The translations under genes were made by a program, and so were the position numbers. A DNA stretch of 64,000 nucleotides. Source: Candidatus Poribacteria bacterium. Lineage in GTDB: Bacteria > Poribacteria > WGA-4E > PCPOR2b. The notes beneath the pieces were generated by a model. The model did not search any database, was not told the DNA's origin, and worked only from the letters and a program-made list of their open reading frames with translations. This document shows positions 16,196 to 37,988 of the stretch, piece by piece. The stretch's first letter is position 1, and each line of letters begins with the position of its first letter. The DNA lies in NCBI GenBank assembly GCA_965198165.1, contig OZ240244.1, positions 1,258,061 through 1,322,060 on the forward strand. Reading direction: 5' to 3'.

Positions 16196-16246
16196 AATGT
16201 GAAGTTTATTATTAAAACTGATGACCGAATGTCAGGGAGTTCTATA

Positions 16247-17056
16247 ATGACCCCCAAACAACGCTACCAGTTTGATGTTACCGGCTACCTCCATTTGGAG
16301 AACGTCCTGAGTGCTGAAGAGTTAGCGGCGGCGCGAGAGGCCGCTTTTCGCTATATCAATACCCCTACGGAAGAACTGCCGCCCGGCTTCCGCTCAAATG
16401 GGAAAGGGTTTGAAAATGGCTTTGCGTTTGATAAGGCATTAGAGGCACTGGCGGTGCATCCGGTGACTTGGCCTATTGTCAAGGAGCTGACCAACAACAA
16501 GCCGCAGCTTATGCGGGGTACAATGATGGCTGACAGAGCCGGTGTGTCAGAGTCTGAAGCACCGCTATACCTGCATTGCGCTCGGGAAGATTTCGGGTGG
16601 GAGAGTACCCGTTACCTTGTAAAGGATGAGCGAATCTTCTGCAATGATTTTGTTATTTTCCCGTATTTGACCGATGTGTACCCGGGAGATGGAGGACTAT
16701 TGGTTGTGCCGGGGTCACACAAGGCTGAGTTTCCACGTCCCGAAACGCTGTTTAATCACGGCGTGGTCGAAGACAAAGACAGCCTTCCACCGGGCGTTGT
16801 CAACATCACGCCGAAAGCGGGGGATATGGTGATTATCTCCGAATTGCTGACGCACGGCGCATTGCCGTGGAAACCGAAAGACCGGTATCGTTGCTTTTTG
16901 GTGCTGCGCTATGGCCCACAGTATCGCGGAGAAAGCCGTGTATCCCAAGAGGTCAGAGCGCGTCTATCGCCTGAAACGTTGGAATTGATCGCCCGAGAAC
17001 ACTACACGCACCCGAAGGAAATCATCAAGATGGATGTCATCACTTTGACCACCTGA
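16247..17056 (+). CDS. phytanoyl-CoA dioxygenase (PhyH) family oxygenase
   Basis: PhyH-type N-terminus QRYQFDVTGYLHLENVLS. HxD...H spacing. GGGAG RBS lies before the ATG at 16247. Confidence 0.75.
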   Translation: MTPKQRYQFDVTGYLHLENVLSAEELAAAREAAFRYINTPTEELPPGFRSNGKGFENGFAFDKALEALAVHPVTWPIVKELTNNKPQLMRGTMMADRAGVSESEAPLYLHCAREDFGWESTRYLVKDERIFCNDFVIFPYLTDVYPGDGGLLVVPGSHKAEFPRPETLFNHGVVEDKDSLPPGVVNITPKAGDMVIISELLTHGALPWKPKDRYRCFLVLRYGPQYRGESRVSQEVRARLSPETLELIAREHYTHPKEIIKMDVITLTT

Positions 17057-18285: not shown

Positions 18286-19035
18286 CTAATACCCTGCCTT
18301 GATGAGGCCCCAAGCAATAGGCAGTTTTCCTGACGCTTCGACGGATAAAATGTTCCCCTCCATCGCCATTGTGACCTCTTCTTCCGATAAGGCTTTCTGC
18401 CACAGGCGAAGTTCGTCAAGAATGCCATCCCAATACCGCTCTGCCCGATATCGCCCAATTTCCAAAGGCGCGCCGTTGTCCGTTTTACCGGGACCGGCGG
18501 CGTTTTTGTCGTCTAGGTCAAGTTTGCCATCAAGATAGATCTGAATCGTAGTCTTATCCTTGCGAACCGAGACGACATGGTGCCACTTGTCATCGGCGAT
18601 AGGGGTTTTGCCGGGCACCTCTCCGCCTGCCGCACCGTCATGATAGCGGGTGTAAAGCAAGCCATCTCTCAGTTTGATGTAGTATCCAGGGCCGTCCCAC
18701 TTGATAAACATGAACCCTTGCCCAGTTTTCTTACCTGTCTTAAACCAAGCTTCCAGGCTCACGTCAGCCGTGCCCATGTCTAATATTTTATTTGCCGGCA
18801 CTGAGGCTCCCATTGATTTGCCGTCTGTGAACGCAACACCGCCCTTTACTTTCCCTTGCACCCACTTGGGTTTATTCTCAAGTTTTGCCACGAATTTGTT
18901 CGGAGAGATATCCGTAATTTTATCTCCGCTTCCTTCGTCTAGTGGAAAGTAGAACACCAAATTGGCGAAATCCGCGCTATATCCAGATGTGACCATGAGA
19001 CTCAAACCAACAGAAAACAGAACAACACATCGCAA
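18286..19035 (-). CDS. secreted LamG (concanavalin-A-like lectin) domain protein with conserved C-terminal tag ...SVEASGKLPIAWGLIKAGY
   Basis: Signal peptide MRCVVLFSVGLSLMVTSGYSA. Laminin_G_3 end motif LDELRLWQKALSEEEV. The frame starts at TTG, while an AGGAGG-ATGATG at 19054 is offset by 1 nt (see findings). Confidence 0.7.
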   Translation of the reverse strand: MRCVVLFSVGLSLMVTSGYSADFANLVFYFPLDEGSGDKITDISPNKFVAKLENKPKWVQGKVKGGVAFTDGKSMGASVPANKILDMGTADVSLEAWFKTGKKTGQGFMFIKWDGPGYYIKLRDGLLYTRYHDGAAGGEVPGKTPIADDKWHHVVSVRKDKTTIQIYLDGKLDLDDKNAAGPGKTDNGAPLEIGRYRAERYWDGILDELRLWQKALSEEEVTMAMEGNILSVEASGKLPIAWGLIKAGY

Positions 19036-19192
19036 ATCGTTTCAATTGCATCATTTTATTTTCCTCCTGTACAAGATTTAGAGTCTGGACGTATCTTTAC
19101 GCCCACAAGTTCAAGAAGGGTAGGAAAGGGATTTCCTACCCACGGGGCCAGGGTGGGGAAGGGATTTCCCACCTACGGAAGTTTTGTGCATA

Positions 19193-20434
19193 CTACTGCT
19201 GTCTCTTGAGCGTCCCCCAAAGCGTTGATAGTTTCCGTTTGGGTGTTACGGATAATCCCTTTTTGAATCTTTCCGCTTCCTCCTGTGTTTCAGGGAAAAC
19301 CGGATTTTGGGTCGCAGAAATTAGGATTCCGTCCAATTCCGTGCCGTCCTCCCGTTGAATGATATTTAACGTATATTCTCCCCTTCTGATGTCAACGGCG
19401 AGTTGTTGCTGTCCCGGTGCGCCAGCGCAGTTTCTGCTGTCCATCTTCGACCATCTCCACGTCGCGATTGGTTGACCTGTGTCCCAGATATGCGTCTGAT
19501 CTCCCGGCATTTTTCCGCCGCAGTTCTCACCAGACCGGGGTTTGGGATTATCAATGCTCCAAAAGAATGAGTCATTTCCCCCATCAGTGGCGATTACCCG
19601 GCCCCAAAAGTAATATGTTCCTGTCTTAGGGATAACGATTTCAAAGTTCGCAAGGCCGTTGCCATCGTTGCCTGCTCCCTGCGGTGCGACCACATATTTT
19701 CCACCGAAAGCGGTTTTTTTATCTTTTTTTATCTCAAAGGGGGCAGTGACTTTAGCCGCGTCTTCGGCATCAATGTAGATGGTGAAAACGGTAATCCTTT
19801 TAACTATCGGTGGCACAACGAGGTCTCTGTCTTTGAGATTGTTGGCACCCCGTTCTGTTTCAGGAAACTTTGGATTTTTCGTATCAGTAACCAGAATGCC
19901 GTCCAATTCTGTGCCATCCTCTCGTTGAATAATATTCAACGTATATATGCCTTTTTTCAGTTTAACGGCAAGTTGGTCTTGGCCGGCTGCTCCGTCACAG
20001 TTTCTGCTATCCATTTTAGACCATTCCCAATCGAGGCGAGGATTGCCGGTGTCCCAAATGTGTACCTGATCCCCTGGGATTTTCCCACCGCAATTCTCCG
20101 CTGACCTTGGAGCGGGATCATCAATGCTCCAAAAAAAAGAATCGTTGCCGCCATCGGTTGCAATCACACGCCCCCAAAAATAGTAGGTGTCATTTTTGGG
20201 CACCTCGAAGGCATACCGAACAAAACCGTTGCCATCATTCCCGGCTCCCTGCGGTGCCACAACATACTTCCCACCGAACGCTCCCTTTTTTTCTCTGACC
20301 TCAAGCGGTGCACTCAGGTCACCGGCATCTTCCGCGTCAATGTAGACCATAAAGGCGGAACTTATCCCACTCGTTGTGCTTAGGAGAAATAGAGTTAATA
20401 TTAGTTTTCTGAATGCCATGTTTGCTCTTTGCAT
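19193..20434 (-). CDS. secreted protein with two tandem CBM-like jelly-roll domains and conserved C-terminal tag ...RKLSTLWGTLKRQQ
   Basis: Signal peptide. Two about 180-aa repeats (YIDAEDA...GGKYVVAPQGAGNDGNG...YYFWGRVIATDGGNDSFFWSID...IIQREDGTELDGIL) resembling the CBM6/35-type xEAED sugar-binding fold. Confidence 0.75.
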   Translation of the reverse strand: MQRANMAFRKLILTLFLLSTTSGISSAFMVYIDAEDAGDLSAPLEVREKKGAFGGKYVVAPQGAGNDGNGFVRYAFEVPKNDTYYFWGRVIATDGGNDSFFWSIDDPAPRSAENCGGKIPGDQVHIWDTGNPRLDWEWSKMDSRNCDGAAGQDQLAVKLKKGIYTLNIIQREDGTELDGILVTDTKNPKFPETERGANNLKDRDLVVPPIVKRITVFTIYIDAEDAAKVTAPFEIKKDKKTAFGGKYVVAPQGAGNDGNGLANFEIVIPKTGTYYFWGRVIATDGGNDSFFWSIDNPKPRSGENCGGKMPGDQTHIWDTGQPIATWRWSKMDSRNCAGAPGQQQLAVDIRRGEYTLNIIQREDGTELDGILISATQNPVFPETQEEAERFKKGLSVTPKRKLSTLWGTLKRQQ

Positions 20435-20461
20435 AGAATATAGGTCAATATATGAAGATTA

Positions 20462-20600
20462 AAAAATAAGTTGGGTAATTTCATACGGATGGCCGGTGCG
20501 GTTGCATGACGTTTATCCGAGGACGGATGGTCGCGTGAGCGAGCGCAAAAAATAAATGGGGTAATTGCATACGGACGACCGGTGCGGTTACCCGTTTAAT
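20462..20600. repeat. dispersed copy of the 118-bp satellite family
   Basis: Shares aataagt(t/a)gggtaat..catacgga..ccggtgcggtt..gacgtttatccgaggacggatggtcg and gtgagcgagcgcaaaaaataaatggggtaat with 8690-9030. Confidence 0.7.
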
Positions 20601-20726
20601 TCTTAAGGTTAATATGAATGTAGGCCGAGATTCCAAAATGGACGAATTGCATACGTCAAGCTAGGAATCTCGAGCTACAATCAAATCAATGAACCTTCGG
20701 AAGTCGCAGGTTCAAATATCAACTGA

Positions 20727-21395
20727 TTAGCGTTGTGCCTTAATTGCTCCCCAAGCAGTCGCTAATTTGTCTTTCGCTTCGACAGCGACTATGGCTCGTG
20801 CTTCCGCATTCGTTTTCGGCAATTGATCGGCTTGCAGGTCTTCATCCGTGACGAGGATACCATCCAATTCTGTGCCATCCTCGCGTTGGATGATGTACAG
20901 CGTGTATGTTCCTTTCGTCAGGTCAACAACGAGCTGGTCTGCTCCATCGGTGCCAGCGCAATTTCTGCTGTCCATCTTTGACCATCCCCACGTTGTGATT
21001 GGTTGACCTGTGTCCCAGATATGCTTCTGATCTCCTGGGATTTTTCCACTACAGTTTTCGCCGGACTTCTGCTCGGCGGCGGAAACGTTAATGCCCCAGA
21101 AGAAGGAATCGTTACCGCCATCGAGCGCAACTACCCGTCCCCAGAACCGGTACTTGCCACCGGGGACAGAAAATTCATACGTCGCAATGGCATTTCCATC
21201 ATTTCCGCTCCCCTGTGGGGCCAGGATATACCCATCGCCGAACGCATCTGCCTTATCCTTTTTGACCTCAAACGGTTTCGTAATCGGTGTGGAAGTGTTC
21301 TCTGCATCAATGTAATGCTTGAAAGCCGATGCGATCCCAACGCATGTCAAGACCATGGCCAAAATAGCAATTAGTGAGCAAATTCTTGCAAACAT
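20727..21395 (-). CDS. secreted single-domain CBM-like protein with conserved C-terminal tag ...AKDKLATAWGAIKAQR
   Basis: Signal peptide MFARICSLIAILAMVLTCVGIASA. Same domain as the 19193..20434 repeats. AAGGAG RBS. Confidence 0.8.
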   Translation of the reverse strand: MFARICSLIAILAMVLTCVGIASAFKHYIDAENTSTPITKPFEVKKDKADAFGDGYILAPQGSGNDGNAIATYEFSVPGGKYRFWGRVVALDGGNDSFFWGINVSAAEQKSGENCSGKIPGDQKHIWDTGQPITTWGWSKMDSRNCAGTDGADQLVVDLTKGTYTLYIIQREDGTELDGILVTDEDLQADQLPKTNAEARAIVAVEAKDKLATAWGAIKAQR

Positions 21396-21534
21396 AGAAA
21401 ATTATCTCCTTAGTTTAGTTTTTCTGAATACAGCCTAAAGCTGTTTGTGTTGTGAATTATTATCAGGATGAACGACTCAACTTGTCGCATCCGGATTTCG
21501 AGGATAGCTGGCTACTGTAGCGTTCTGTGGGGCT

Positions 21535-22260
21535 TCACCGCTTAGCTTTGATGTTTCCCCAAATTTCAGCAAGTTTGCCAGTCGCCTCGACCGATTCCGC
21601 AGTCTTTTCCTTGGCCTTTTCATAGTCGTCATCGGTAGGACGGTATTGGGAGCTGTCTGTCCACACGAAGACATCCATGAACCGGGTAGAATTCCCTTGT
21701 CTGTGGTAGATATACATCCAGTTTTCGCCATTCTGAAGTTCCTTCTTATGCCCCTCGCGGCCGCCACCATCCCATCCCCAAGCGGCAACATTTGCCTCAA
21801 AAATTCGGTCAAGCGCATTGACGAATGGTGCGACTCCATCGCCCCCGGGAAAGGGTGCTTTGTCAGGAATCTTCTTGTTCGCCCCCTTGACAAGCAGGTA
21901 ATCCGATTGGTTACTTGGATTGACGACGCGCCCCCAGAAGTACCATAGACCTTTCTTGCCGCCATCCGTTTTACTGATGTCGAATGAATAGACAAGCCTC
22001 CCCCCTACACCACCGGTTCGAGTAACCGTTTTTCCGAATGCACCTTTCGGGGGGGCAGGCGTACCGCCTTCCTCTCCGGCGATCGGGAAGAATTGATGGC
22101 CTTTGGGTTCTCGTGCATCATACGCTTCGGCTTCAAACCAGATTTGAACTCCACCGCCGACTTTTGAGACTTTGAAGACATCGACGGCATCCGCTGGCAT
22201 CGTCACCAACAACAGCACCAGGGTAACGCAGAGTAGTGCTCGCTGATACCATTGAGACAT
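21535..22260 (-). CDS. secreted CBM-like (divergent subfamily) protein with conserved C-terminal tag ...ATGKLAEIWGNIKAKR
   Basis: AAGGAG RBS before the ATG at 22260. Signal peptide MSQWYQRALLCVTLVLLLVTMPADA. Domain motifs QIWFEAEAYD...WYFWGRVVNPSNQSDYLLV...IYHRQGN. Confidence 0.8.
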   Translation of the reverse strand: MSQWYQRALLCVTLVLLLVTMPADAVDVFKVSKVGGGVQIWFEAEAYDAREPKGHQFFPIAGEEGGTPAPPKGAFGKTVTRTGGVGGRLVYSFDISKTDGGKKGLWYFWGRVVNPSNQSDYLLVKGANKKIPDKAPFPGGDGVAPFVNALDRIFEANVAAWGWDGGGREGHKKELQNGENWMYIYHRQGNSTRFMDVFVWTDSSQYRPTDDDYEKAKEKTAESVEATGKLAEIWGNIKAKR

Positions 22261-22307
22261 GATGATTTTCTCCTTTCCATCATTTGAGGAGTGTATCGAG
22301 ATGCGAC

Positions 22308-23021
22308 TTAACGCCTCGATTTGATTCGTCCCCAAACGGTAGCAAGTTTGCCGGCGCGCTCAACTGCTACTGCGGCTGTGGCACTGTTATAATCGGCATC
22401 GGTAGGCGTATAATCAGGGCTGTCTGCCCACACGAAAACATCCATCTTCTTGGAATCATTTCCCTGTCGGTGGTATATGTGCATGGTGTTCACGCCATCT
22501 TGAAGGTCTTTGGTATGCCCTTCTCCATGGTCAGCTCTCCCCCAGTCCCAGGCACCTACGTCACCGATATTTTGTTCAAAAATCCGGTCATCGTCGTTGA
22601 CAAAGGGTGGGGTATCGTTGTCGCCCGGATATGGTGGACCACCAGGGATCTCTGCATCGTCCGGATCGCCCTCTACGAGCATATAATCCGAATTATTGGC
22701 AGGATTCACAACTCGCCCCCAGAAATACCATGTGCCACCCTTGCCACCGGCCGCACCGACATTAAATTTGTAGGTCAGCCGGCCGCCCGCGGCACCCGCA
22801 CGAGTAAGTGCTTTACCTATCGCACCAGCTTCGTCAACAAGCAGGAAAAACTCATCGGTATCGGGATCTCGTACATCCCAATCTTCCGCTTCAAACCAGA
22901 CTTGACTTCCGCCTCCATGGTTCGATATTTTGAGATTCTTGACCGCATGGGCGGGTATTGTCAACAGCAACAACGCAACAAAAATGGTAAGCGTTAGTTG
23001 CACATACCAACGATGTAACAT
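22308..23021 (-). CDS. secreted CBM-like protein (paralog of 21535..22260) with conserved C-terminal tag ...RAGKLATVWGRIKSRR
   Basis: AAGGAG RBS before the ATG at 23021. Signal peptide MLHRWYVQLTLTIFVALLLLTIPAHA. Motifs QVWFEAEDWD...WYFWGRVVNPANNSDYMLV. Confidence 0.8.
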   Translation of the reverse strand: MLHRWYVQLTLTIFVALLLLTIPAHAVKNLKISNHGGGSQVWFEAEDWDVRDPDTDEFFLLVDEAGAIGKALTRAGAAGGRLTYKFNVGAAGGKGGTWYFWGRVVNPANNSDYMLVEGDPDDAEIPGGPPYPGDNDTPPFVNDDDRIFEQNIGDVGAWDWGRADHGEGHTKDLQDGVNTMHIYHRQGNDSKKMDVFVWADSPDYTPTDADYNSATAAVAVERAGKLATVWGRIKSRR

Positions 23022-23697
23022 ATTAATCTTCTCCTTATTGAGAGTTTGCCTATAGAGCCGCAGATTTTGTAGGATCATGCGGATTTCCACTTCGTGAATC
23101 CGGATTTTCAGAATGTTGCGGAAGTATAGGTCGGTTTTGAAAGTTAAAATGTGATACGTGCTTCGGCCAAAACACCTTGGCCTTCAAACACGTTTTGGAT
23201 AACGGATGATGCACTTATACGGATTCAATTTGATCGGTTGAGAATCCGTGAAACACCCATCCGCTTTCTGCCCACTTGGGCTTGAATCGTTCCAGTCAAA
23301 TTTATGGAACGAAACGTCATTCCGATCCCCTAGTGCTTTGTCACGTCAAAGTTGATGGGTATAGAAGTCGCGAGCACAGCTCGCTCCTACAAGAAGATAA
23401 GCGCAGCGCGGAATCCAGACGCGCTCTAAATACTTTTCACCCATCATTTTAATGTGGACAGAACACTAGAGTGGAAGATTAGGGGAAAAACTTCTACCCA
23501 ACCTTCCATTCTTCCAACCTTCCATTCTTTTTCATCATATATGCAATTGCGATTTATGTCCAGTGAAATTTTCCCTTTTTCTATAATCAACCAGATCAGG
23601 ACATCTTGCTTGAATCCGACATACTCCCCTTGACGCGCTGCGTCGAAAATCGGACGCAGCGCATCATGGGAGCGAGTTGTGGGTGAACTGACCAAGG

Positions 23698-24480
23698 CTA
23701 TTGTTTAATGTCGCCCCAAACGGTGGCTAATTTCCCTTTTGGAGAAACAGCGAGAACGGAGCTAAATCCCTTACTCATAATCTGCTTAATATCCTTCTCA
23801 TCAACAGCGACATTAAAGATGGCAACCTCGTCAATCTTACCGCCGAAAAAGAGTGTGTGGTCGCCGAGGTTTCCAATCAAAACTTTTTTCGGGGTCACCA
23901 TAACGTCGTAGTCAATTTTTTTCTCACTCTCTTTGACCCCATTGACATAAATCGCAACCGTTTTCCCGTCTCTATCGTGAACGCCGGCAAGGTGGGACCA
24001 GGCGTTCTTCTTTATGTCGGTTGTGCCTTTCACATTAGATTGGGCCGTATTCCCGGGGTCTCGGTGTGATACAAATGCCTTCCCCTGCAAAATACTCATG
24101 TAATACGACCTCTCTGTTCCTGACCAACCCTTTCCCACAATCATTTCATGCGTGGCGAGATTAATGACCGTAGGAAATACCCATACGGACAATGTAAAAC
24201 TGTTGACATCTAGGCTTTTATCGTTTCCGCAATCCACAAAAGTCTTGCTGTCATCAAATTCCAAACTCTTGCCGAACTTCCCATTAGTCCATTTCGGACC
24301 ATCCAGTTTTCCGTCATTGCCATTCCCGGAGAGATCTTCGGCGACATTGCCTGAGCCCTGGTCAAAGAGCCACAGCCCGGCAAGCGTTTTGGGGTCAATC
24401 TCGGCATTACTTATGCTGGTGAACATCAGGCTTAGGATGACTATGCTGATGCTGAATACAGAATATCTTGCCCTTAACAT
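23698..24480 (-). CDS. secreted LamG domain protein with conserved C-terminal tag ...SPKGKLATVWGDIKQ
   Basis: GGGAGG RBS before the ATG at 24480. Signal peptide MLRARYSVFSISIVILSLMFTSISNA. Laminin_G_3 end motif IDEVAIFNVAVDEKDIKQIM. Confidence 0.8.
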   Translation of the reverse strand: MLRARYSVFSISIVILSLMFTSISNAEIDPKTLAGLWLFDQGSGNVAEDLSGNGNDGKLDGPKWTNGKFGKSLEFDDSKTFVDCGNDKSLDVNSFTLSVWVFPTVINLATHEMIVGKGWSGTERSYYMSILQGKAFVSHRDPGNTAQSNVKGTTDIKKNAWSHLAGVHDRDGKTVAIYVNGVKESEKKIDYDVMVTPKKVLIGNLGDHTLFFGGKIDEVAIFNVAVDEKDIKQIMSKGFSSVLAVSPKGKLATVWGDIKQ

Positions 24481-24596
24481 CTTAATGTCCTCCCTTTGCG
24501 TTTGGTGATAAAGTTCCGACAATTTTCCAATAATTTCATTCTAACAGAATCGCATAAAGATGTCAAGCAGTCTTTTTTCGCCTTCCCCCCTCTCAA

Positions 24597-25448
24597 TTAC
24601 CCACGCGAAGGCTCTGTCATCCGCTCTCGCGCTTGGCGGGACAGTTCGGCGAGATGCCCATCGTTCGCCATCACCTGTTCTAAATGCCGCATTCGCTGTG
24701 GGCCCGCGGTGCGAACCATTTTCTCACCGTATTTCCGGTCAATCCAAAAACGCGCCGAGTTGCCGATATATTTGCGTAAATCCTCCAAACGGTCTTCCGG
24801 GTAGCGTTGGCAGAGGTTCATCGTGAACATGCGTCGGTGGGTTCCACCCCCAAATGCCGCATGTTTGGTATTGTGGTTGAACAACACAACATCACCCGGC
24901 CCGGTTTCAAAGGCGACCGCGGGCACGTCTCTGCCGTGAACGCTCCATCGCTCTTGACTTTCTCGAATCTGCTGGGAAAGCACATCGGCATAACCATCCC
25001 CGAAGATATGACTGCCCGGAATCACGCGAAGGCTTCCGGTGTCGCGGGTCAACCGGTCAAGGTAAAACGCGATTTTGATGTGCATCGGGTCTTCCGGCTT
25101 ATGGCCCCCATCGGAATGCCAACCTGTGTCACCGACGTAGAAATTCCCATCGCTTCCCATATAGTTGAAGTCGTCGCCCAATAAAGAGGTTGCGATGTCT
25201 AAAATACGAGGGTCGTCTAGCAGAGCAGAGAGGACCTCGCTCTGATCAATAAATGGGACAATACAGGAACGGGCTTGTCCGTTGTGGGGTTTCCCGTCGT
25301 GTCCCCCGCCACGCTCTGCCCAAACTGCTTCAAACGCGCTATCAATTTCATCAATACGGTTTGCCATCAGCCCGGGGAAACTCAGATAACCGAAGGTCTG
25401 AAAGAAATTCATCTGCTGGTCTGTCAGTTTGAAATCTTGGTCGTTCAT
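24597..25448 (-). CDS. phytanoyl-CoA dioxygenase (PhyH) family oxygenase
   Basis: Motifs FFQTFGYLSFPGLM, GWHSDG (HxD) and the distal His (HNTKHAA). Confidence 0.8.
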   Translation of the reverse strand: MNDQDFKLTDQQMNFFQTFGYLSFPGLMANRIDEIDSAFEAVWAERGGGHDGKPHNGQARSCIVPFIDQSEVLSALLDDPRILDIATSLLGDDFNYMGSDGNFYVGDTGWHSDGGHKPEDPMHIKIAFYLDRLTRDTGSLRVIPGSHIFGDGYADVLSQQIRESQERWSVHGRDVPAVAFETGPGDVVLFNHNTKHAAFGGGTHRRMFTMNLCQRYPEDRLEDLRKYIGNSARFWIDRKYGEKMVRTAGPQRMRHLEQVMANDGHLAELSRQARERMTEPSRG

Positions 25449-25463: not shown

Positions 25464-26525
25464 TTAGAAAAATCCGGATATCGAAATCCTCTGTGAATTG
25501 CCGAGGTCATGGGCGTTGAACGCATAATCTACAAATAGCGTCGCTTTGTCGATGCGAAGGCGCAGGCCGCTTCCTGCTGCAAGTCTGTCTCCGTCTGCAC
25601 CGACGCGAAACGCAACCACCTTGAATAACCGATACTCCGCCCCGATGCGAAAAAGGGTCTCGCTACCCTTACCTTCGGCGAGGTCTTTTGCACCTGTTTC
25701 TAGGTCTGCTCCGACTGTCACATCTCCAATTATCGGGGGGGTAACGTCGTAGGATACGCCGAGCCGCATTCGTCGGTTGCGAGTGAACGTCGGACGGGCG
25801 GGGGTGTTCCAGCGAATCTGTGTGCCCGTGGCATCCTGTAGCATCGCCCCAATCCGAAGTCCGTGCAGTGGCTCTACCATTAAACCGAGGTCAATGCCGA
25901 AACCGCTTCCGCTGTTTACGAAAATTGATTGGCGGAGTAGCTTGAGATTTCCACCGACCGCGAGTTCGGGGTTGATTTGACGAGCATAGGAGATTAATAC
26001 GGCATTGTCGGTGTTGCTGAAAAACTCTTCGATTGTAGGGCGGTCAATGTATAACTCCCCTTCATCTTTAATGCCGTTACCATTTTTGTCTTGGAAATCC
26101 CCCAAAATGCCGTTCTCGTTGGTATCAATGAAGGTTGTTTTCGGAATATCGTCCACACCGAGCCGAATCCAACTCACGCCGACAGTTCCGATGTCTTCAA
26201 TCTGCTGGACATAATTGACGAAATTGTACGTTACCAATCCCTTGCTCAAGAAACTGCCCCCTTCCACGCCGAAGGAGTCTGAGTACATCGCAGAGAAGGC
26301 GTGTTTTTGAACTCGCGTTAGCCCCGCTGGATTCCAGTAGGCCGCTGTCGCATCATCCGCGACCGATACAAACGCACTTCCCATCCCCAATGCTCGTGCA
26401 CCGACACCGTGACTGAGAAATTCCGCTGCGTGACTTCCTTCTTCGGCAGAGGTTCCCGCTGGTATGGAGACACAACCGATACATAGAAGGAGGAATACAA
26501 TATGATATTTGGATATTTTTCCCAC
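25464..26525 (-). CDS. PorV/PorQ-family-like outer-membrane beta-barrel protein
   Basis: Signal peptide. Hallmark N-terminal GARALGMGSAFVSVADDATAAYWNPAGL. Beta-barrel-like alternating pattern. C-terminal ...ISISGFF (aromatic terminal residue). Confidence 0.65.
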   Translation of the reverse strand: MGKISKYHIVFLLLCIGCVSIPAGTSAEEGSHAAEFLSHGVGARALGMGSAFVSVADDATAAYWNPAGLTRVQKHAFSAMYSDSFGVEGGSFLSKGLVTYNFVNYVQQIEDIGTVGVSWIRLGVDDIPKTTFIDTNENGILGDFQDKNGNGIKDEGELYIDRPTIEEFFSNTDNAVLISYARQINPELAVGGNLKLLRQSIFVNSGSGFGIDLGLMVEPLHGLRIGAMLQDATGTQIRWNTPARPTFTRNRRMRLGVSYDVTPPIIGDVTVGADLETGAKDLAEGKGSETLFRIGAEYRLFKVVAFRVGADGDRLAAGSGLRLRIDKATLFVDYAFNAHDLGNSQRISISGFF

Positions 26526-26624
26526 CAGTTTACCTCAACTGCCAAATGACTTTGTAAGACGTTTCTGTTATGTGCTCTAGTCGCATTCAATTCTTCAGAC
26601 AATTCACATGAACCGTCGAACTGG

Positions 26625-28598
26625 CTATCCCGGTGCAAAATCATAAATCGGTGTACGGATAATAACGCTCAACACGCTCCAGAATGCCCCAACGCAGTAT
26701 TCGCCTAGAATCACACCGAAGAAGAAACCGACCGCTTTTCTATACAACGCCGGCCCGCCGAACCTGAGAACAAACCATTTGATAGTTGTACTGATTACCA
26801 AGCAGGTCCAGAAATACCCGACACCACCGGTCATCGAGAGCGCGTAGCCAGCGGGGTGTAGCGGCCACCAGATAAATCGCATCCGCATCAACATTAACAG
26901 AAACGTAAAGCCCATGCTCCCTGCCATAAATCCCATCGCAGTTGGGTCTGGGTCACGCGGATATGCAAGCAAGCCCGCCAGCCACCGGAATTGATAAATG
27001 TGCCCGATTGAAGGGCCGACTCCGCCGCCCGCACCTGTGATGGCTCCACCGAGACGGTAGAGTTCACTCACAGTCGCCCAAAAGGATGCCAGCGCACCAA
27101 ACAGCACGGCAATCATCATCGCTGCCACAAGCCGCTTTGTATTCATCCCGGTTCTCTCGGCGATTTTGAACGCTTCCAACTGATGCGGCATAATGTGTTC
27201 CCGATAACCACGTCCACTGAAGAACCAGAAGTAGGGAAAGACTGTTAGGTTATTTGGCCCGATTCGGCGTGTTCCCAAAATATTAATTAGGAACTGTTGA
27301 CCGTTGACCATACCCGCCATCTCATGAGCAGGAGGCCCTATCTCCGCACGTACCCGGGTTATCGCCACGGAAAGGGCGTAGAAAAACGCAAAGTACGGCA
27401 GAATGATTAGGAGCGTCATCCCCGCTTTCAGGCAGAACCAAGTAATAAACAGCGCGGAGAGAATTATCAGCACAAGGCATGTTCGGTAGCGAATCGGTTC
27501 ATCAGAATCGTCAAGCCCATTCGGCCTTCCCAAAATCGTCCGTGCAACGTTGAGCAGATGCCTCCGTGTTATGACTAACGTTGCGACAAATATTGCCAGC
27601 CACGCCCCGATGGATTGTTCGCTGAAGTAAGGAAAAGGGGGTGGAATTGCAACGGCACTCCCAAAAACACGTTGGAGTTTTTCGACAATGTAGAAGAACC
27701 AGATCGAGAATGAGAGATCAAGTGGCAACAAAAATCCGAGCCCAATCACAAACGGATAGAGCGGGACAGTGATAGTTCCAACGGCGTTCCACGGTTTTTC
27801 AGTGAAGAACGTCCCCCAATTCCGGGCATTATGCCGGACGCTGAAATCTGGAAGGATGGGATAGAAATGGGCGAGACCGTGCCAGACATCGAGAGTCGCC
27901 GCGCTGATAAACCCTATCCACAGAATCCGATTTCGGAAAAAACTAGCAGACCCACCCCGCTCGGTAATCGCCAGCGGCAGTTGAATAATCGGGTAAGCGA
28001 GTTTTTCATGCTCTGTCCACTGCTTGCGAACAATCACGTTCAAACAGATCATGATTGTACCCCACGGGAGGATGAACGCTGTCCACCACAGTGTCGGCCA
28101 GAGCCATGCCCGGAGAAGTTTTTCTGTGTAGAACGGCGTATCGCCTTCGTAGAAGCCGCGGATGAGCTCCTTGTCCGCAACAACGAGATGTTTTGGAATA
28201 TGGTTGTGAAACAGGCCTGCCCAATCGTTTTCGAGCGTGGCGAACCAGAACGCATGGGGAATCGCGGGGATAGTCAGCGCCAGCGTATCGTGTCCCGCTA
28301 GGCCAGAGGCGATTGAGAGCATCGCGTAAATTGTAACCATTTCGCCTTGGGTCAAGGCCGCCCTCGGAGCGAACCGCTTGATAATTAGATTAAGCAGAAT
28401 GAGAAAAAACAGATTCAGGACAACATTCCAGAACAACGAAATCGTGGTTGGATGCCCAGAATGCCAGACGCATTCAACTTCGATAATCCAAAAAACGTTG
28501 GGCGGAATGAGAAGTAAGGCAATTAAAATCGCACGCCAGGTTACCCCTGATGTTTGGTGCGCGCGCTCTTTTTCAATGGCAACCATTGATGACCTCAA
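26625..28598 (-). CDS. large (657 aa) polytopic integral membrane protein of unknown function
   Basis: At least 12 hydrophobic helices. Trp/Phe-rich loops. No recognisable catalytic motif by eye. Co-oriented with, and 100 bp upstream of, the PorV-like gene. Confidence 0.6.
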   Translation of the reverse strand: MRSSMVAIEKERAHQTSGVTWRAILIALLLIPPNVFWIIEVECVWHSGHPTTISLFWNVVLNLFFLILLNLIIKRFAPRAALTQGEMVTIYAMLSIASGLAGHDTLALTIPAIPHAFWFATLENDWAGLFHNHIPKHLVVADKELIRGFYEGDTPFYTEKLLRAWLWPTLWWTAFILPWGTIMICLNVIVRKQWTEHEKLAYPIIQLPLAITERGGSASFFRNRILWIGFISAATLDVWHGLAHFYPILPDFSVRHNARNWGTFFTEKPWNAVGTITVPLYPFVIGLGFLLPLDLSFSIWFFYIVEKLQRVFGSAVAIPPPFPYFSEQSIGAWLAIFVATLVITRRHLLNVARTILGRPNGLDDSDEPIRYRTCLVLIILSALFITWFCLKAGMTLLIILPYFAFFYALSVAITRVRAEIGPPAHEMAGMVNGQQFLINILGTRRIGPNNLTVFPYFWFFSGRGYREHIMPHQLEAFKIAERTGMNTKRLVAAMMIAVLFGALASFWATVSELYRLGGAITGAGGGVGPSIGHIYQFRWLAGLLAYPRDPDPTAMGFMAGSMGFTFLLMLMRMRFIWWPLHPAGYALSMTGGVGYFWTCLVISTTIKWFVLRFGGPALYRKAVGFFFGVILGEYCVGAFWSVLSVIIRTPIYDFAPG

Positions 28599-28964
28599 GC
28601 CGAAATGATTGGCACATTATAGCACAGATACCCAAATCTCGCAAGCGTAAAACACAACATTGAGGTTGACAAAGCCAGCATGTTAGAGTAAACTAAAATC
28701 TAATTATTTGGGAAAAATCGTAAAAGCAGGTTTAATATAAAATTTGTAGTATTGTGGGCTATACCCGTTCTAGTTATCTGCGAGCAACCGAGTTTTGCCG
28801 ATCCTTGCAGGTGGAATTTTGTTTTCTCAGTTCCCTCCGCTGCAAAAGGCGTTGCGTTAGGATGGCGCGGGGATACGCCCTCTGTTGGTTTCCGTGCGTC
28901 AGTGGTATAAAACCCGTTTCAATATAAAAATTAAGCCAATTTCAGCATAAAGGGTCACGGTTGT

Positions 28965-32623: not shown

Positions 32624-33892
32624 ATGAAAAGCCTATATCTTTCTTCACTACGAGGAATTATCGGCGATTGGGAGTACTTTCCGTGTTTAATGAAATTCAG
32701 AGATATTGCTGAAAGAGTAAACTTAGCAGAAGAAATCTATGAGAGCAAAACCCTAAGTGAGCTAGTGGAGCGGGAGCTCCGTCAAAATCGCGGCAAAGAG
32801 ATAAAAGCATATCTGATTCAACAAGAACAACGCTTTGTCAATTCCTTAATCGTTGCAGTTTACGAAGGGGCCCCCAATTGGTATGGAATAACCAACCTGA
32901 AGCCAAACAGCATATTAGAGGTCAATACAATACCTGATGAGATCGTCGAAAATGTTGGATTTCTATGCTTGAGTGGTGGCGAGAGGCTTTTTACACTGGA
33001 CGGACAAGACAGGTTGGTGGGCATTAAAGACGCTGTGAAAGAGAATCCTGAGCTGGGTGACGACGAATTGACAGTCATCTTTATCGCTCATAATACAGAT
33101 TCGGCGGGCAAAGAGAGAAGTCGGAGGCTTTTCACAACATTAAACAAGAACGATAAACTTGTTTCAAAAGGGGGGATTATTGCTCTTGACGAGGATGATA
33201 CAATGGCTATTATCGCCCGGCGGTTGGTTATGGAAAATCCCATGTTTATGGAAAAACGCATCTTGAACAATGCCACCAATAATATACCACCTAGCAATTC
33301 TACTTGCCTAACAACGATTGGGAATCTGTACGATCTGCTCGGAATCCTTTTTACGAAAATCTATGTTATATCGAAAAAAAAGAGACAAGCAGATATAAAA
33401 GAGGAATTGACGAAAACGAGGTTAAGTGATAAAATTCTTGATAAGCACTACAAAAACGCTGGCGATTATTTTACGAGACTCGCATATAGCTTCGCTCCGT
33501 TGACCGAGTTTTGCACCGCCTCCGATTATTCTGCGGTCGTCAAAAAATACAGAAATCCAGAGGGTGGCAGTATTCTGTTTCGCCCAATCGGATTGACAAT
33601 TATCACTGAAATTGTTTCAACGCTGGTCAAGAAATACCCATTGGATAGGTGCTTCGAGTTGGTTTCAAAATTGCCTACTGATCTGACAGCAGAACCTTAT
33701 AACGGTGTTATCTGGCATCTAACGCGAAAGCGGATGACGGGTGGGAAAACTCTCGTCAGAAATCTTTTGCTGTATATGTTGGATGCGTATGATGGGGATG
33801 AAGATAAACTGCACCAAGATTACGCAAAAGCATTAGGGGTAGAACAGAACAAAATCCAGCTTCCTGTATCTGTGATTAAGTGTGTGTCCTGA
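32624..33892 (+). CDS. DGQHR domain protein (DndB/DpdB-like, ParB/Srx-fold), paralog 1
   Basis: FTLDGQDRLVGIK motif. 422 aa. The C-terminal two-thirds are near-identical at DNA level to paralog 2. Confidence 0.8.
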   Translation: MKSLYLSSLRGIIGDWEYFPCLMKFRDIAERVNLAEEIYESKTLSELVERELRQNRGKEIKAYLIQQEQRFVNSLIVAVYEGAPNWYGITNLKPNSILEVNTIPDEIVENVGFLCLSGGERLFTLDGQDRLVGIKDAVKENPELGDDELTVIFIAHNTDSAGKERSRRLFTTLNKNDKLVSKGGIIALDEDDTMAIIARRLVMENPMFMEKRILNNATNNIPPSNSTCLTTIGNLYDLLGILFTKIYVISKKKRQADIKEELTKTRLSDKILDKHYKNAGDYFTRLAYSFAPLTEFCTASDYSAVVKKYRNPEGGSILFRPIGLTIITEIVSTLVKKYPLDRCFELVSKLPTDLTAEPYNGVIWHLTRKRMTGGKTLVRNLLLYMLDAYDGDEDKLHQDYAKALGVEQNKIQLPVSVIKCVS

Positions 33893-33983
33893 GAATCACT
33901 ACCCAGGAGCAGGTCACCAAAATGCGCGGCAACAGGATAGGGAATCTGGTAGACTTGTTGTAGGAGTAGATACGGATTAGGCA

Positions 33984-34493
33984 GTGACAGGAAATGCTAT
34001 GGCACATTATGATGTGGTGAGTCAGCAAAAAGAGGTAAGAATCTATCAGACGAATTTCCTTCTTTGGAAAACACAATGGGATGCTTACACTGACCCGCCG
34101 ATTCCATTGGATTGGAAATGCGTGAAGTTTGAAGAAAATAACATAAACCAGGTTCCTACCGAGAAAGGAGTTTATGCTTTTTTCATTGAGCCAAGACTTG
34201 CCAAATTTCCATCGCACGGCTATTTAGCATATATCGGACAGACAGGATATAAGAGCGAGCGTAACTTGCGAAAGAGATTTGGGGATTATCTCCAAGACAA
34301 AAAGAGATCCAAAAGAGTACGAGTCAATTTAATGTTGAATACATGGGAAGACTATCTGTATTTTTATTACGCTGAAGTTGATCCGGCTCTGGATTTAAGA
34401 CAACTAGAACAAATGCTGTTAGATACTTTCACGCCCCCTTTCGTTGAGCGAGGACATTCAACGCACATAAGTGACATAATCAAAGGAATATGA
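33984..34493 (+). CDS. GIY-YIG nuclease family protein
   Basis: EKGVYAFF...GYLAYIGQTG...NLRKRFGDY matches GIY-(10-11)-YIG plus the conserved Arg. Its stop overlaps the next start (ATGA). Confidence 0.7.
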   Translation: MTGNAMAHYDVVSQQKEVRIYQTNFLLWKTQWDAYTDPPIPLDWKCVKFEENNINQVPTEKGVYAFFIEPRLAKFPSHGYLAYIGQTGYKSERNLRKRFGDYLQDKKRSKRVRVNLMLNTWEDYLYFYYAEVDPALDLRQLEQMLLDTFTPPFVERGHSTHISDIIKGI

Positions 34494-35758
34494 TGATGGA
34501 AAGACTATATCTTTCTTCGCTAAGAGGTCTAATCGGTGATTGGGTGTATTATCCTGCCCTAGTGAAACTCAAGGTTATTGCTGAACGGGTGAGTATCGCT
34601 GAAGAGATTTATCAAAGCCCAGCCTTGAGCAAAATGGTACAGAGATGGATAAAAAGGAATGGTGGTAGGGAGATAAAAAATTATCTCCTCAAACAAAAAG
34701 AGCGTTTCTTTAATTCACTAATCGTAGCAGTCTATGAAGGAGAGCCCGATTGGCATGCGATTACTCGTGTTGACAGCAACAATCCATTGGTAGATGCCGA
34801 GGACATCCCCGACGATGTAGTTGCTGGAATTGGATTTCTCAGTTTGAGCGGCGACGAAAAACTATTCACACTTGATGGGCAACACCGACTTATAGGAATT
34901 AAGGAAGCTGTGGAGGAAGACCCTGAACTGGGCGAAGAAGAATTGACGGTAATATTTATCGCCCATCGCACAGATGAAGCAGGAATGGAAAGAAGTCGGA
35001 GGCTTTTCACAACATTAAACAAGAACGATAAACTTGTTTCAAAAGGGGAGATTATTGCTCTTGACGAGGATGATACAATGGCTATCATTGCTCGGCGGTT
35101 GGTTATGGAAAATCCCATGTTTATGGAAGACCGCATCTTGAACAATGCCACCAGTAATATACCACCCAGCAATTCTACTTGCCTTACGACCATTGGGAAT
35201 CTGTACGATCTGCTCGGAATCCTATTCACAAAAATCTATGTTGTATCGAAAAACAAGCGGCTGGCAAAGATAAAAGAGGAATTGACCCAAACGCGGTTAA
35301 GCGATGAAATCCTTGGTCAGCACTACAAAAACGCTTGCGATTATTTTACGAGACTCGCATATAGCTTCGTTCCGTTGACCGAGTTTTGCACCGCCTCCGA
35401 TTATTCTGCGGTCGTCAAAAAATACAGAAATCCAGAGGGTGGCAGTATTCTTTTTCGCCCAATCGGATTGACAATTATCACTGAAATTGTTTCAACGCTG
35501 GTCAAGAAATACCCATTGGATAGGTGCTTCGAGTTGGTTTCAAAATTGCCTACTGATCTGACAGCAGAACCTTATAAGGGTGTTATCTGGCATCCAACGC
35601 GAAAGCGGATGACGGGTGGGAAAACTCTCGTCAGAAATCTTTTGCTCTATATGTTAGATGCGTATGATGGGGATGAAGATAAACTACATCAAGATTACGC
35701 GAAAGCATTAGGGGCACCCCAGTTGCTACCTGTTCCATACAAACTAAAACAGGGTTGA
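34490..35758 (+). CDS. DGQHR domain protein, paralog 2
   Basis: FTLDGQHRLIGIK. 422 aa. Translationally coupled to the GIY-YIG gene. Confidence 0.8.
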   Translation: MMMERLYLSSLRGLIGDWVYYPALVKLKVIAERVSIAEEIYQSPALSKMVQRWIKRNGGREIKNYLLKQKERFFNSLIVAVYEGEPDWHAITRVDSNNPLVDAEDIPDDVVAGIGFLSLSGDEKLFTLDGQHRLIGIKEAVEEDPELGEEELTVIFIAHRTDEAGMERSRRLFTTLNKNDKLVSKGEIIALDEDDTMAIIARRLVMENPMFMEDRILNNATSNIPPSNSTCLTTIGNLYDLLGILFTKIYVVSKNKRLAKIKEELTQTRLSDEILGQHYKNACDYFTRLAYSFVPLTEFCTASDYSAVVKKYRNPEGGSILFRPIGLTIITEIVSTLVKKYPLDRCFELVSKLPTDLTAEPYKGVIWHPTRKRMTGGKTLVRNLLLYMLDAYDGDEDKLHQDYAKALGAPQLLPVPYKLKQG

Positions 35759-35904
35759 TATAACCGACAACCTCACATATAATATTAAGCAGGTTTAAGA
35801 ATAAAAGTTTCGATTCCGATTCCAAAGAAATCAAGTTTTTGCAAGGGACGGGCGGGGGGACCCCGCCCCTACGGGTTCAAGAATGTGAAAATTACTATTA
35901 AAAC

Positions 35905-36777
35905 TTGCTTATTATGGCACAACAATATGATAGCGTCTCAAAATATATCATCTCGGCGTATCCGCAAGCGATGGCAAAACTGGTCTTCAGCAGTCAAACC
36001 GTCGAAGTGCAGGAAACCCTCTCTACTGAGCAGATTATTGTCGATGTCGGCTACACCGATATCACCCTCAGGGTGAAACGTCCTGATGGCACATTAGCTA
36101 CGCTCCACATTGAGGTGCAAACCCGCGATAGCCAGGAACCGATGCCGTTGCGGATGGCAGCGTATCATGGATACCTGCTTAGAGAGTATAAGATGCCCGT
36201 CTGCGGCTGTGTTATTTATCTTGCCCCGAATGCTGGCAAAACCGACCCCGGTCACTATACCTATGAATGGGACGGGTACCAGTATCTGATGCAGTACAAG
36301 GTGATACGATTGATTGAGATAGATGGGCAAGCGATTTTGGAAACGCAGGACCCCGGTTTACTACCACTCACGCCTTTGATGAAACGGCCTAATGATATGG
36401 ATGCCGATCGCTGGTTGGACGAATGTGTTAAAGCGACCAAGGCGGCAGCCGTGGCACCGGAGGTTTTGCCCAATTTATTGGCGGTTTTGAGTATCTTTAG
36501 CAGTTTGGTTTATGACTCTGAACAGATTAACCAACACATCCCGGAGGTCATGATGCACGAATTTCCGTTAGTCCAACACTTTATTGAACAAGGGATTAAG
36601 CAAGGGCGTCAAGAAGGGCATCAAGAAGGGCGCCAAGAAGGTACTGAGCAAGCCCTGACAGCAATTGCGATTGCCATGCTGAACGATAATCAACCGATTG
36701 ATACGATTGTCAAATACACCGGCTTATCTGAAGCGGAGATTAAACAATTAACCGAATCGGTTGATTCAACGACCTAA
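35905..36777 (+). CDS. Rpn/YhgA-like PD-(D/E)XK recombination-promoting nuclease / putative transposase
   Basis: C-terminal QGRQEGHQEGRQEG repeat. Family-typical tail ...IDTIVKYTGLSEAEIKQL. The likely start is the ATG at 35914; the ORF track uses TTG at 35905. Confidence 0.7.
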   Translation: MLIMAQQYDSVSKYIISAYPQAMAKLVFSSQTVEVQETLSTEQIIVDVGYTDITLRVKRPDGTLATLHIEVQTRDSQEPMPLRMAAYHGYLLREYKMPVCGCVIYLAPNAGKTDPGHYTYEWDGYQYLMQYKVIRLIEIDGQAILETQDPGLLPLTPLMKRPNDMDADRWLDECVKATKAAAVAPEVLPNLLAVLSIFSSLVYDSEQINQHIPEVMMHEFPLVQHFIEQGIKQGRQEGHQEGRQEGTEQALTAIAIAMLNDNQPIDTIVKYTGLSEAEIKQLTESVDSTT

Positions 36778-36872
36778 GCCTAACCCCTTTTCAAACAGAC
36801 TCTGAACACAGGTGCGAATAGTATGCAAGGGCTTGGATTGGGCGATCCAACCCGAACGACTGGCAGATCAGA

Positions 36873-36908
36873 AAAGCCCCAACCATATCAAATGGCTGGG
36901 GCTTTTTG
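36873..36908 (+). terminator. rho-independent terminator
   Basis: aaaagccccaaccatatcaaatggctggggctttttg is a GC stem plus T-run. A duplicate lies at 37344-37380. Confidence 0.7.
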
Positions 36909-36960
36909 AATAACGGGTTCGACCCGGGTTGCCCTCTACACGGTAGATTATCGCTTAGGT

Positions 36961-37248
36961 ATGTACGAAAATGACTCTGAACAGATTAACCAACACATCC
37001 CGGAGGTCATGATGCACGAATTTCCGTTAGTCCAACACTTTATTGAGCAAGGTATTGAACAAGGGATTAAGCAAGGGCGTCAAGAAGGGCATCAAGAAGG
37101 GCGCCAAGAAGGTACTGAGCAAGCCCTGACAGCAATTGCGATTGCCATGCTGAACGATAATCAACCGCTTGATACGATTGTCAAATACACCGGCTTATCT
37201 GAAGCGGAGATTGAACAATTAACCGAATCGGTTGATTCAACGACCTAA
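36961..37248 (+). CDS. free-standing Rpn C-terminal fragment ORF (95 aa), possibly an RpnS-like small protein or a pseudogene
   Basis: Near-identical to the last about 90 aa of the 35905..36777 protein. Preceded by the duplicated terminator block. Confidence 0.4.
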   Translation: MYENDSEQINQHIPEVMMHEFPLVQHFIEQGIEQGIKQGRQEGHQEGRQEGTEQALTAIAIAMLNDNQPLDTIVKYTGLSEAEIEQLTESVDSTT

Positions 37249-37489
37249 GCCTAACCCCTTTTCAAACAGACTCCGAACACAGGTGCGAATAGTATGCAAG
37301 GGCTTGGATTGGGCAATCCAATCCGAACGACTGGCAGATCAGAAAAGCCCCAACCATATCAAATGGCTAGGGCTTTTTGAATAACGGGTTCAACCCGGGT
37401 TGCCCTCTACACGGTAGATTATCGCTTAGGTATGTACGAAAATCTATGCTCCCTCCGCAAAAAAGAACGCAGCGGACATAAAAGATGGA

Positions 37490-37966
37490 TTGACTAAAAC
37501 ACGATTCAGTGATAAAATTCTTGATACGCACTACAAAAACGCTTGCGATTATTTTACGAGACTCACAGATAGCTTCGCTCCGTTGACCGAGTTTTGCACC
37601 GCCTCCGATTATTCTGCGGTCGTTAAAAAATACAGAAATCCAGAGGGTGGCAGTATTCTTTTTCGCCCAATCGGATTGACAATTATCACTGAAATTGTTT
37701 CAACGCTGGTCAAGAAATACCCATTGGATAGGTGCTTTGAGTTGGTTTCAAAATTGCCTACTGATTTGACAGCAGAACCTTATAACGGTGTTATCTGGCA
37801 TCCAACGCGAAAGCGGATGACGGGTGGGAAAACTCTCGTCAGAAATCTTTTGCTCTATATGTTAGATGCGTATGATGGGGATGAAGATAAACTGCACCAA
37901 GATTACGCAAAAGCATTAGGGGCACCCCAGTTGCTACCTGTTCCATACAAACTAAAACAGGGTTGA
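37490..37966 (+). pseudogene. DGQHR paralog-2 C-terminal fragment (158 aa)
   Basis: Near-identical to the C-terminus of 34490..35758. The N-terminal DGQHR motif region is absent. Confidence 0.6.
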
Positions 37967-37988
37967 TATAACCGACAATCAGTATCTG

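Follow-up and report, generated by a model that had tools for sequence, protein, structure and literature searches.

Two adjacent minus-strand genes in a stretch of a Candidatus Poribacteria genome (contig OZ240244.1 of assembly GCA_965198165.1; the whole analysed stretch of 64,000 nucleotides is hereafter called the window) encode an inner-membrane polytopic protein of the families DUF6785 and DUF6784 (26625-28598) and an outer-membrane beta-barrel of the PorV/PorQ family (25464-26525). The modelled membrane protein has the fold of the oligopeptide transporter (OPT) or Yellow-Stripe family, and the two genes stay adjacent in nearly all assessable poribacterial loci of the same subfamily. Our tentative preference is to see in the pair a two-membrane module for the transport of a small solute, set in a nutrient-acquisition neighbourhood, a reading that we hold to be quite possible, if a little short of probable. 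In such a module the barrel would act as the outer-membrane channel for the solute and the DUF6785 protein as an ion-coupled inner-membrane permease, and the neighbouring secreted lectin-like or enzymatic proteins carry a T9SS (type IX secretion system) type-A C-terminal domain (CTD), a short C-terminal tag (KLxTxWGxIK) or a dockerin. The pair itself would not be the machinery by which the short tag is recognised or cleaved, and the array of tagged genes that adjoins it in the window would be lineage-specific. Cooperation between the two proteins, whether physical or functional, is what we infer, as are the direction of transport and the substrate, for which a peptide, an oligosaccharide or a chelate would all be possible.

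We favour transport on several grounds: because the only significant match of the membrane protein among solved structures is a transporter, with nothing sortase-, protease- or GT-C-like; because barrel and DUF6785 genes remain paired, also in two deep lineages in which no cargo is near and two DUF6785 genes flank the barrel; because a GHMP kinase and BNR/Ycf48-like genes accompany the pair in the sponge clade and tag loci are rich in glycoside hydrolases; because DUF6785 is multi-copy and diversified, and free of tag and barrel in about 200 kb of Armatimonadota flanks; and because promoter-like sites suggest separate units for the pair and the tagged genes. The sequence-only reading of this DNA had proposed both proteins as candidate machinery for the tagged proteins, an interpretation that is partly supported by the results below.

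Families and folds of the two proteins

Both open reading frames (ORFs) were confirmed, that of the barrel at 25464-26525(-) with 353 aa and a GTG start, and that of the membrane protein at 26625-28598(-) with 657 aa and a TTG start. The motif, gene order, orientation and proximity of a tagged gene described earlier were also found as described (942 nt from the barrel stop to the first tagged start, i.e. within 1 kb). The two genes have 1,899 and 1,471 database homologues (E<=0.001), of which the nearest are 99-100% identical and belong, for both proteins, to poribacterial metagenome-assembled genomes; with more than 1,400 homologues each, the DUF6785 gene and the barrel gene are both real. 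Since the nearest homologue of the membrane protein has 653 aa, its true start is probably 4 codons downstream, at 28586.

The membrane protein had been considered unassignable to any family, a view that is refuted by matches to Pfam DUF6785 over residues 20-517 (E 1e-160, 535.8 bits, profile positions 1-498 of 498) and to Pfam DUF6784 over residues 556-653 (E 5e-30, 104.1 bits, profile positions 2-99 of 101), both above the gathering threshold. Its structural model has the OPT transmembrane fold, and the OPT-family transporter YS1 was its only significant fold match among solved structures. Pfam OPT gave no match even at E<=10, and a profile search of PDB sequences returned none. Neither hidden Markov models (HMMs) nor fold comparison matched the protein to the exosortase, archaeosortase, rhombosortase, GT-C, Wzy, sortase or protease families, and the GT-C, Wzy or exosortase identities that the sequence-only reading had put forward for checking were rejected. 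OPT proteins are ion-coupled carriers of oligopeptides or metal chelates, so that translocation or cleavage of folded 25-45 kDa proteins by the DUF6785 protein is unlikely. In Poribacteria the family is multi-copy and diversified, as expected for a family of transporters. DUF6785 is unmentioned in the literature searched.

The 353-aa protein, an outer-membrane beta-barrel with a signal peptide, scores 105.2 bits with the NCBIfam model of the PorV/PorQ family (NF033709, cutoff 90; residues 32-350 on profile positions 2-323 of 326). The equivalog cutoffs (NF033710, NF033711, NF052325 set) were missed for PorV (21.9 against 250), PorQ (46.7 against 220) and PorV2 (142.6 against 325), the match to NF052325 ('putative type IX sorting system protein PorV2') covering the N-terminal half of the barrel only. 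Below the Pfam gathering scores were also PorV (PF19572, 17.6 against 27), Toluene_X (PF03349, 20.1 against 29.7, a partial match limited to the N-terminal 48 residues) and DUF5723. The AlphaFold2 model is a beta-barrel of moderate confidence (predicted local distance difference test, pLDDT, 67.5; predicted template modelling score, pTM, 0.67), for which Foldseek ranked first two PorV chains of the F. johnsoniae translocon (8gl6_F and 6h3i_F; E 2e-11 and 2e-9, TM 0.55-0.58), with TbuX, FadL and TodX ranking next (E about 1e-7).

Hence, the earlier PorV-like assignment stands at the level of family score and best fold, and falls as regards the N-terminal motif on which it had been built. This motif (GARALGMGSAFVSVADDATAAYWNPAGL, residues 42-69) is part of a hatch-type motif that spans residues 36-69 and ends NPAG. 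By BLASTP, the N-terminus aligns with the hatch region of E. coli FadL (32% identity over 68 aa, E 0.001, including ADDA...NPA; PDB titles such as 'FadL mutant delta NPA' name the NPA motif), and the same segment also aligns with the PorV N-terminus. As it aligns equally to FadL and to PorV, GARALGMGSAFVSVADDATAAYWNPAGL marks the hatch region of the FadL superfamily, not PorV in particular, and was rejected as a PorV-specific signature. Within the FadL superfamily the barrel thus belongs to the PorV/PorQ family, without being orthologous to a T9SS component that has been characterised.

A further trait of the barrel is an Asp/Asn/Gly-rich insertion (DTNENGILGDFQDKNGNGIKDEGE, residues 134-157, 26055-26126(-)), many positions of which are invariant in 22 homologues. 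It lies in a low-confidence loop of the model, is not present in FadL and resembles two calcium-binding (EF-hand or dockerin-like) loops.

Genomic neighbourhoods of the pair

The conservation of the arrangement was assessed in 80 genome loci with DUF6785 relatives and in the contexts of two more homologues, whose ORFs were scanned with HMMs built from the window proteins; poribacterial loci with at least 62% identity were taken as the window's own subfamily. Within it, the barrel gene lies directly 3' of the DUF6785 gene in 45 of the 49 assessable loci (window included), often overlapping it or following at 0-300 nt. Two deep lineages, L081 (on a 3.95-Mb contig) and L069, show the order DUF6785, barrel, DUF6785; the ORFs of L081 overlap, and neither tagged nor CTD genes were found within 10 kb of either trio. 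The pairing of barrel and DUF6785 is therefore kept where the cargo is not, and the constant partner of the barrel is the transporter gene, not the cargo. No barrel was found beside the more distant poribacterial DUF6785 paralogues or the Armatimonadota homologues, and about 200 kb of flanks of Armatimonadota DUF6785 genes held neither tag nor barrel. Two Armatimonadota loci (L082:10001-14861 and L083:7654-12514) have DUF6785 followed by co-directional genes for PBP2 (a transpeptidase) and RodA, and preceded by a prepilin-type N-methyl protein and a set of ABC-2 transporter genes.

The linkage of barrel, membrane protein and tagged cargo, which the sequence-only reading had proposed to examine in related genomes, is not conserved: within the subfamily, a tagged gene lies within 2.5 kb of the pair only in the window and in L039, where tagged genes occur within about 1.5 kb upstream, and a general synteny of the barrel followed by tagged genes was consequently rejected for the subfamily. 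The sponge clade has an order of its own, namely two tagged LamG genes (opposite strand), a Ycf48/BNR-like gene, TolC, an RND-type membrane-fusion protein, a galactokinase-like GHMP kinase immediately 5' of DUF6785, the barrel, and 1-5 large proteins, the majority of which have a T9SS type-A CTD at their end. The two LamG genes sit 7-9 kb upstream on the other strand in most of these loci, a position that is uninformative because tag density is high. Unlike the sponge clade, the window is without TolC, membrane-fusion protein, GHMP kinase or CTD genes. A general tripartite pump built from TolC and the membrane-fusion protein 5' of DUF6785 was rejected, as these genes occur in the sponge clade only and neither in the window nor in L081.

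Proteins with a T9SS type-A CTD directly follow the barrel in related Poribacteria (TIGR04183 at 35.8 and 30.4 bits, cutoff 23). A custom CTD HMM matched 29 loci overall, and 23 sponge-clade loci have CTD proteins directly after the barrel. At L005:13496-15988, L013:13991-15736 and 21 other sponge-clade loci, 1-5 large secreted proteins (beta-propeller, LamG, dockerin-like) score above the TIGR04183 cutoff; in L031, L037 and L042 the protein in the post-barrel position ends in dockerin-like repeats, not in a CTD.

These CTD proteins could mean that Poribacteria have a T9SS-like pathway in which the barrel serves as a true shuttle of the PorV type, binding CTDs and perhaps the short tag and passing the cargo on at the outer membrane, with the DUF6785 protein as an accessory (e.g., for the import of signal peptides after their release or the export of a precursor of the anchor). 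We judge this unlikely, while giving it serious weight. The family-level score, the PorV chains at the head of the structural matches, the CTD proteins right after the barrel in 23 sponge-clade loci, the six-gene tagged array after the barrel in the window, and the presence of CTD and tag genes on the same contigs all agree with a shuttle; the equivalog scores far under their cutoffs and the Pfam PorV score below gathering do not. A T9SS scan, which covered about 35 of the approximately 62 called window ORFs (mostly the larger ones), detected no core component (SprA/Sov, PorU, PorK/L/M/N, PorT etc.), and the earlier statement that the window has no PorU-, Sov- or SprA-like genes thus holds for these ORFs. 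No TIGR04183-type CTD was found in the window, and a GldK-like match in L070 (132 against a cutoff of 350) is a generic protein of the FGE-sulfatase fold. Reviews assign the T9SS to the Fibrobacteres-Chlorobi-Bacteroidetes (FCB) group (PMC11205867); no report of a T9SS in Poribacteria was found in the literature searched. A further difficulty for a shuttle is that the only constant neighbour of the barrel is a transporter gene and that the deep lineages have no cargo nearby. The scarcity of barrels at tag loci (see below) points the same way, this being a weak point because the genes of a general shuttle and those of its cargo can lie apart.

The short C-terminal tag and its linkage

On the minus strand of the window the order is membrane protein, 99 nt, barrel, 15 nt, PhyH, 74 nt and six tagged genes (24522-18286). 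The latter, which stand outside the conserved pair, encode secreted proteins (two with LamG, four without a Pfam family; 18286-24522) that share the C-terminal ending KLxxxWGx[IL]K, with 1-3 residues after it, the general form being [KR]LxxxW[GAS]x[ILV]K. A wider pattern ([KR][LIVM]xxxW[GAS]x[ILVM]K, 0-5 residues before the stop) matched 50 ORF C-termini as against 3 internal positions in 1.2 M six-frame residues. The tag is real and widespread: besides those of the window, 1.4 Mb of poribacterial loci hold about 44 copies, and a search with the back-translated pattern gave at least 120 metagenome stretches (0.68 Mb), with at least 158 tagged ORFs, often in tandem, among the stretches listed, whose contig identifiers come from many metagenome projects. 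Seven long-contig loci were further picked by a tagged LamG gene; the six that gave DNA bring the tag-selected set to 126 loci (0.80 Mb).

As the sequence-only reading had it, the tag is short and unlike a T9SS CTD. It comprises about 14-20 aa and is without the motifs B, D and E, which even the 'short' T9SS CTDs retain (PMC11969387); these latter domains, of about 60 aa, were accordingly rejected as a model for the tag, and the difference is one more point against a PorV-type shuttle. The tag strings were not found in the literature searched, and no NCBIfam model matches the tag. Among the LamG homologues, 105 of 120 carry the tag and one carries a PEP-CTERM-like tail instead (P0275, a homologue of the window protein encoded at 23698-24522), an apparent swap of sorting signals which supports the view that the tag is an interchangeable signal for sorting or anchoring.

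Small LamG proteins are not the only carriers of the tag, as it is also found on proteins of 689-784 aa (L006:15952-18306(+) and L008:17544-19613(+)), where the segment before it looks like the last part of a T9SS CTD (…TVYYYQIEDISHAGVRKQLATIRMRGFVSASGKLTTRWADLKAQQ); the L006 protein has leucine-rich repeats and sub-threshold matches to zinc metalloproteases. Within the window array, the 413-aa tagged protein (19193-20434(-)) is an internal tandem duplication of a domain of about 190 aa that occurs singly in the 222-aa tagged protein (20727-21395(-)), with FWGRVIATDGGNDSFFW… shared between them; neither this domain nor the related one of the 260-aa and 266-aa proteins matched a Pfam or NCBIfam family.

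In the tag-selected loci listed, the barrel HMM had a single weak match (L149, 46 bits), and DUF6785-family genes numbered 11 (10 independent), 9 of them at 2 kb or less from a tagged gene, the orientations being tandem, divergent or convergent. Two arrangements are operon-like, both with two tagged genes and then DUF6785, the gap being 77 nt in L208 and 99 nt in L156. The tag-adjacent paralogues belong mostly to subfamilies other than that of the window, and paralogues adjoin tags also in two loci that had been selected by DUF6785 (L014 and L055). An excess of DUF6785 near tags was not demonstrable (rate ratio 3.3, p=0.09) against a control, the outer flanks of DUF6785-selected loci, that is biased upward by the clustering of paralogues; the share of DUF6785 among polytopic ORFs was likewise the same in tag-selected loci and controls (5/27 as against 2/11). 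Where a tagged LamG gene was the basis of selection, the annotated neighbourhoods abound in glycoside hydrolases (GH10, GH4, GH123, GH127, GH95, GH43 and a fucosidase) and sometimes include DUF6785.

Such adjacency would fit DUF6785-family proteins being a dedicated partner of the short tag, i.e. a docking, retention or sorting platform whose paralogues serve different tagged sets, as exosortase paralogues do, and whose window representative has also recruited an outer-membrane barrel. This we consider improbable, in spite of the operon-like and tag-adjacent loci and of the PEP-CTERM tail, through which the tag behaves as an exchangeable sorting signal. The predicted transporter fold has no recognisable catalytic site, most tagged genes are without a DUF6785 neighbour, the Armatimonadota homologues lie beside PBP2 and RodA with no tags seen, and the contexts rich in glycoside hydrolases make a shared pathway the simpler explanation. 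Hence, of the earlier proposal that the membrane protein is tag machinery there remain the paralogues beside tags in 10 independent loci, set against an excess that is not significant and that vanishes among polytopic proteins.

Other polytopic proteins were also seen at tag loci. One family (L098:9705-11276(+), L108:159-1814(+), L207:15209-16753(-), L208:133-675(-)) has about 515-550 aa, an invariant N-terminal YFPxQDGPxHxYNS, about 9 hydrophobic segments and a C-terminal soluble part, and its genes immediately adjoin tagged genes or DUF6785 paralogues; L208 has, in sequence, two tagged genes, DUF6785 and the YFPxQDGPxHxYNS gene, with overlapping ends. It matched no Pfam, NCBIfam or PDB sequence and may be a better machinery candidate for the tag. 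Three mutually unrelated polytopic proteins of about 530-545 aa (L143:2230-3867(-), L134:5136-6731(+), L205:12166-13794(+)) also adjoin tagged genes, one with DUF6798 and two without a family, the L205 gene standing after three tandem tagged LamG genes. An extended version of the partner idea would join these elements into one sorting system, with (A/S)V-x-P-x-G-K-L-x-T-x-W-G/A-x-I/V-K plus about 3 residues as the signal, OPT-fold DUF6785 proteins (and maybe the YFPxQDGPxHxYNS family) as its partners, and the PorV-like barrel as the outer-membrane step in the window subfamily; we give it little credence. If true, a transporter fold would have been recruited for the handling of protein C-termini in Poribacteria and their free-living relatives.

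Alternatively, the pair and the tagged array may be unrelated neighbours, the array having landed there by virtue of the frequency of the tag in these genomes. Tags are indeed abundant in both sets of loci, the pair has wholly different flanks in the window than in the sponge clade, and there is a separate promoter-like site for the first tagged gene (TTGACA-17-TAGAAT plus TG, 24538-24566(-), matching 11/12 and the best of the region) between PhyH and its start. Together with another such site upstream of the DUF6785 gene (TTGCGA-17-TATAAT plus an upstream TG, 28616-28644(-), 10/12 in the consensus scan), both being pattern matches only, this suggests that the pair and the tagged genes are separate transcription units. 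Mere chance nonetheless seems doubtful to us, considering that arrays of secreted proteins directly follow the barrel in both the sponge clade and the window lineage, that L039 has its tags within about 1.5 kb upstream, and that the window has short gaps (15 and 74 nt).

Several of these observations also count against the solute transport module. C-terminally tagged secreted arrays stand directly downstream of the barrel both in the sponge clade (T9SS CTD) and in the window lineage (short tag), with tags close upstream in L039; in 10 tag-selected loci a tagged gene has a DUF6785 paralogue as its direct neighbour, at times in an operon-like arrangement (e.g., L208 and L156). The barrel is nearer to PorV, a cargo shuttle, than to FadL by HMM and by fold, in a model whose confidence is only moderate. 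Finally, no substrate can be named, and the OPT likeness of the membrane protein is structural only.

Other window features and comparison with known systems

The gene 15 nt 3' of the barrel (24597-25448(-)) encodes a PhyH-family Fe(II)/2-oxoglutarate dioxygenase (Pfam PhyH, E 1e-13). It is probably co-transcribed with the barrel in this genome only, as no PhyH gene was found after the barrel in the other loci compared. The window holds three PhyH-family genes (10650-11855(+), 16199-17056(+) and 24597-25448(-)), along with several GFO/IDH/MocA oxidoreductases, so that the one between barrel and tagged genes is probably not specific to the locus. The other scanned ORFs include a sulfatase, CarAB, a dihydroorotase-like amidohydrolase, a DndB/HNH island and a transposase. 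The region 32624-42396(+), of low G+C content (0.42-0.46 as against about 0.50), contains two DndB-like genes, an HNH_2 endonuclease, a GHKL-type ATPase (HATPase_c_3) and unannotated ORFs, and is probably a DNA-modification or defence island. A YhgA-like transposase (Transposase_31, 53172-54383(-)) adjoins the pyrimidine genes carB (45250-48486), carA (48686-49909) and that of the dihydroorotase-like amidohydrolase (50695-52017).

Both proteins of the pair are of known structural kinds. What is new is the assignment of the OPT/Yellow-Stripe fold to DUF6785/DUF6784 proteins, which are widespread in Poribacteria and Armatimonadota, the pairing, in Poribacteria, of genes for an OPT-fold transporter and a PorV/PorQ-family barrel, and the position of this pair beside T9SS type-A CTD cargo in a phylum outside the FCB group. 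PorV-like matches (commonly taken as a marker of a T9SS) or the N-terminal FadL-type motif thus call for caution before secretion machinery is inferred from them. The short tag, abundant across many metagenome projects, has no obvious dedicated machinery at this locus; should either of the minority sorting readings be true, the locus would give access to a sorting pathway not known before, in one of the major groups of sponge symbionts.

With PorV (LptO) and PorQ of the Bacteroidota T9SS the barrel shares a score above the NF033709 cutoff, a best fold match to F. johnsoniae PorV in SprA complexes (6h3i, 8gl6) and, in relatives, CTD proteins nearby; it differs in being far below the equivalog cutoffs, in having as host a Poribacterium, outside the FCB group, and in the lack of translocon, sortase or motor genes nearby. 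Pairing with an OPT-fold transporter gene is, to our knowledge, not a feature of Bacteroidota porV loci. FadL, TodX and TbuX belong to the same barrel superfamily and share the N-terminal hatch motif ending NPA, whereas the barrel misses the Toluene_X gathering score, is shorter than FadL (353 aa as against 446 aa) and has the insertion at residues 134-157. The likeness of the membrane protein to OPT and Yellow-Stripe-like carriers (barley YS1; TC 2.A.67) lies in the transmembrane fold of its model; identity is 11-14%, Pfam OPT does not match, and Pfam files the protein as DUF6785 plus DUF6784.

At the level of neighbourhoods, the co-occurrence of secreted LamG/CBM-like proteins, glycoside hydrolases, a sugar-kinase-like gene, an outer-membrane barrel and an inner-membrane permease may, by analogy, recall polysaccharide-utilisation-type loci, from which the present ones differ by having a FadL/PorV-type barrel and an OPT-fold permease and no SusC/SusD pair. 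The exosortase/PEP-CTERM, archaeosortase and rhombosortase systems resemble the tagged loci in the short conserved tag on many secreted proteins, in the polytopic genes that are sometimes adjacent and in the one PEP-CTERM swap; unlike theirs, the tag described here is without a transmembrane helix or basic tail, and the DUF6785 protein has a transporter fold and matches no sortase family.

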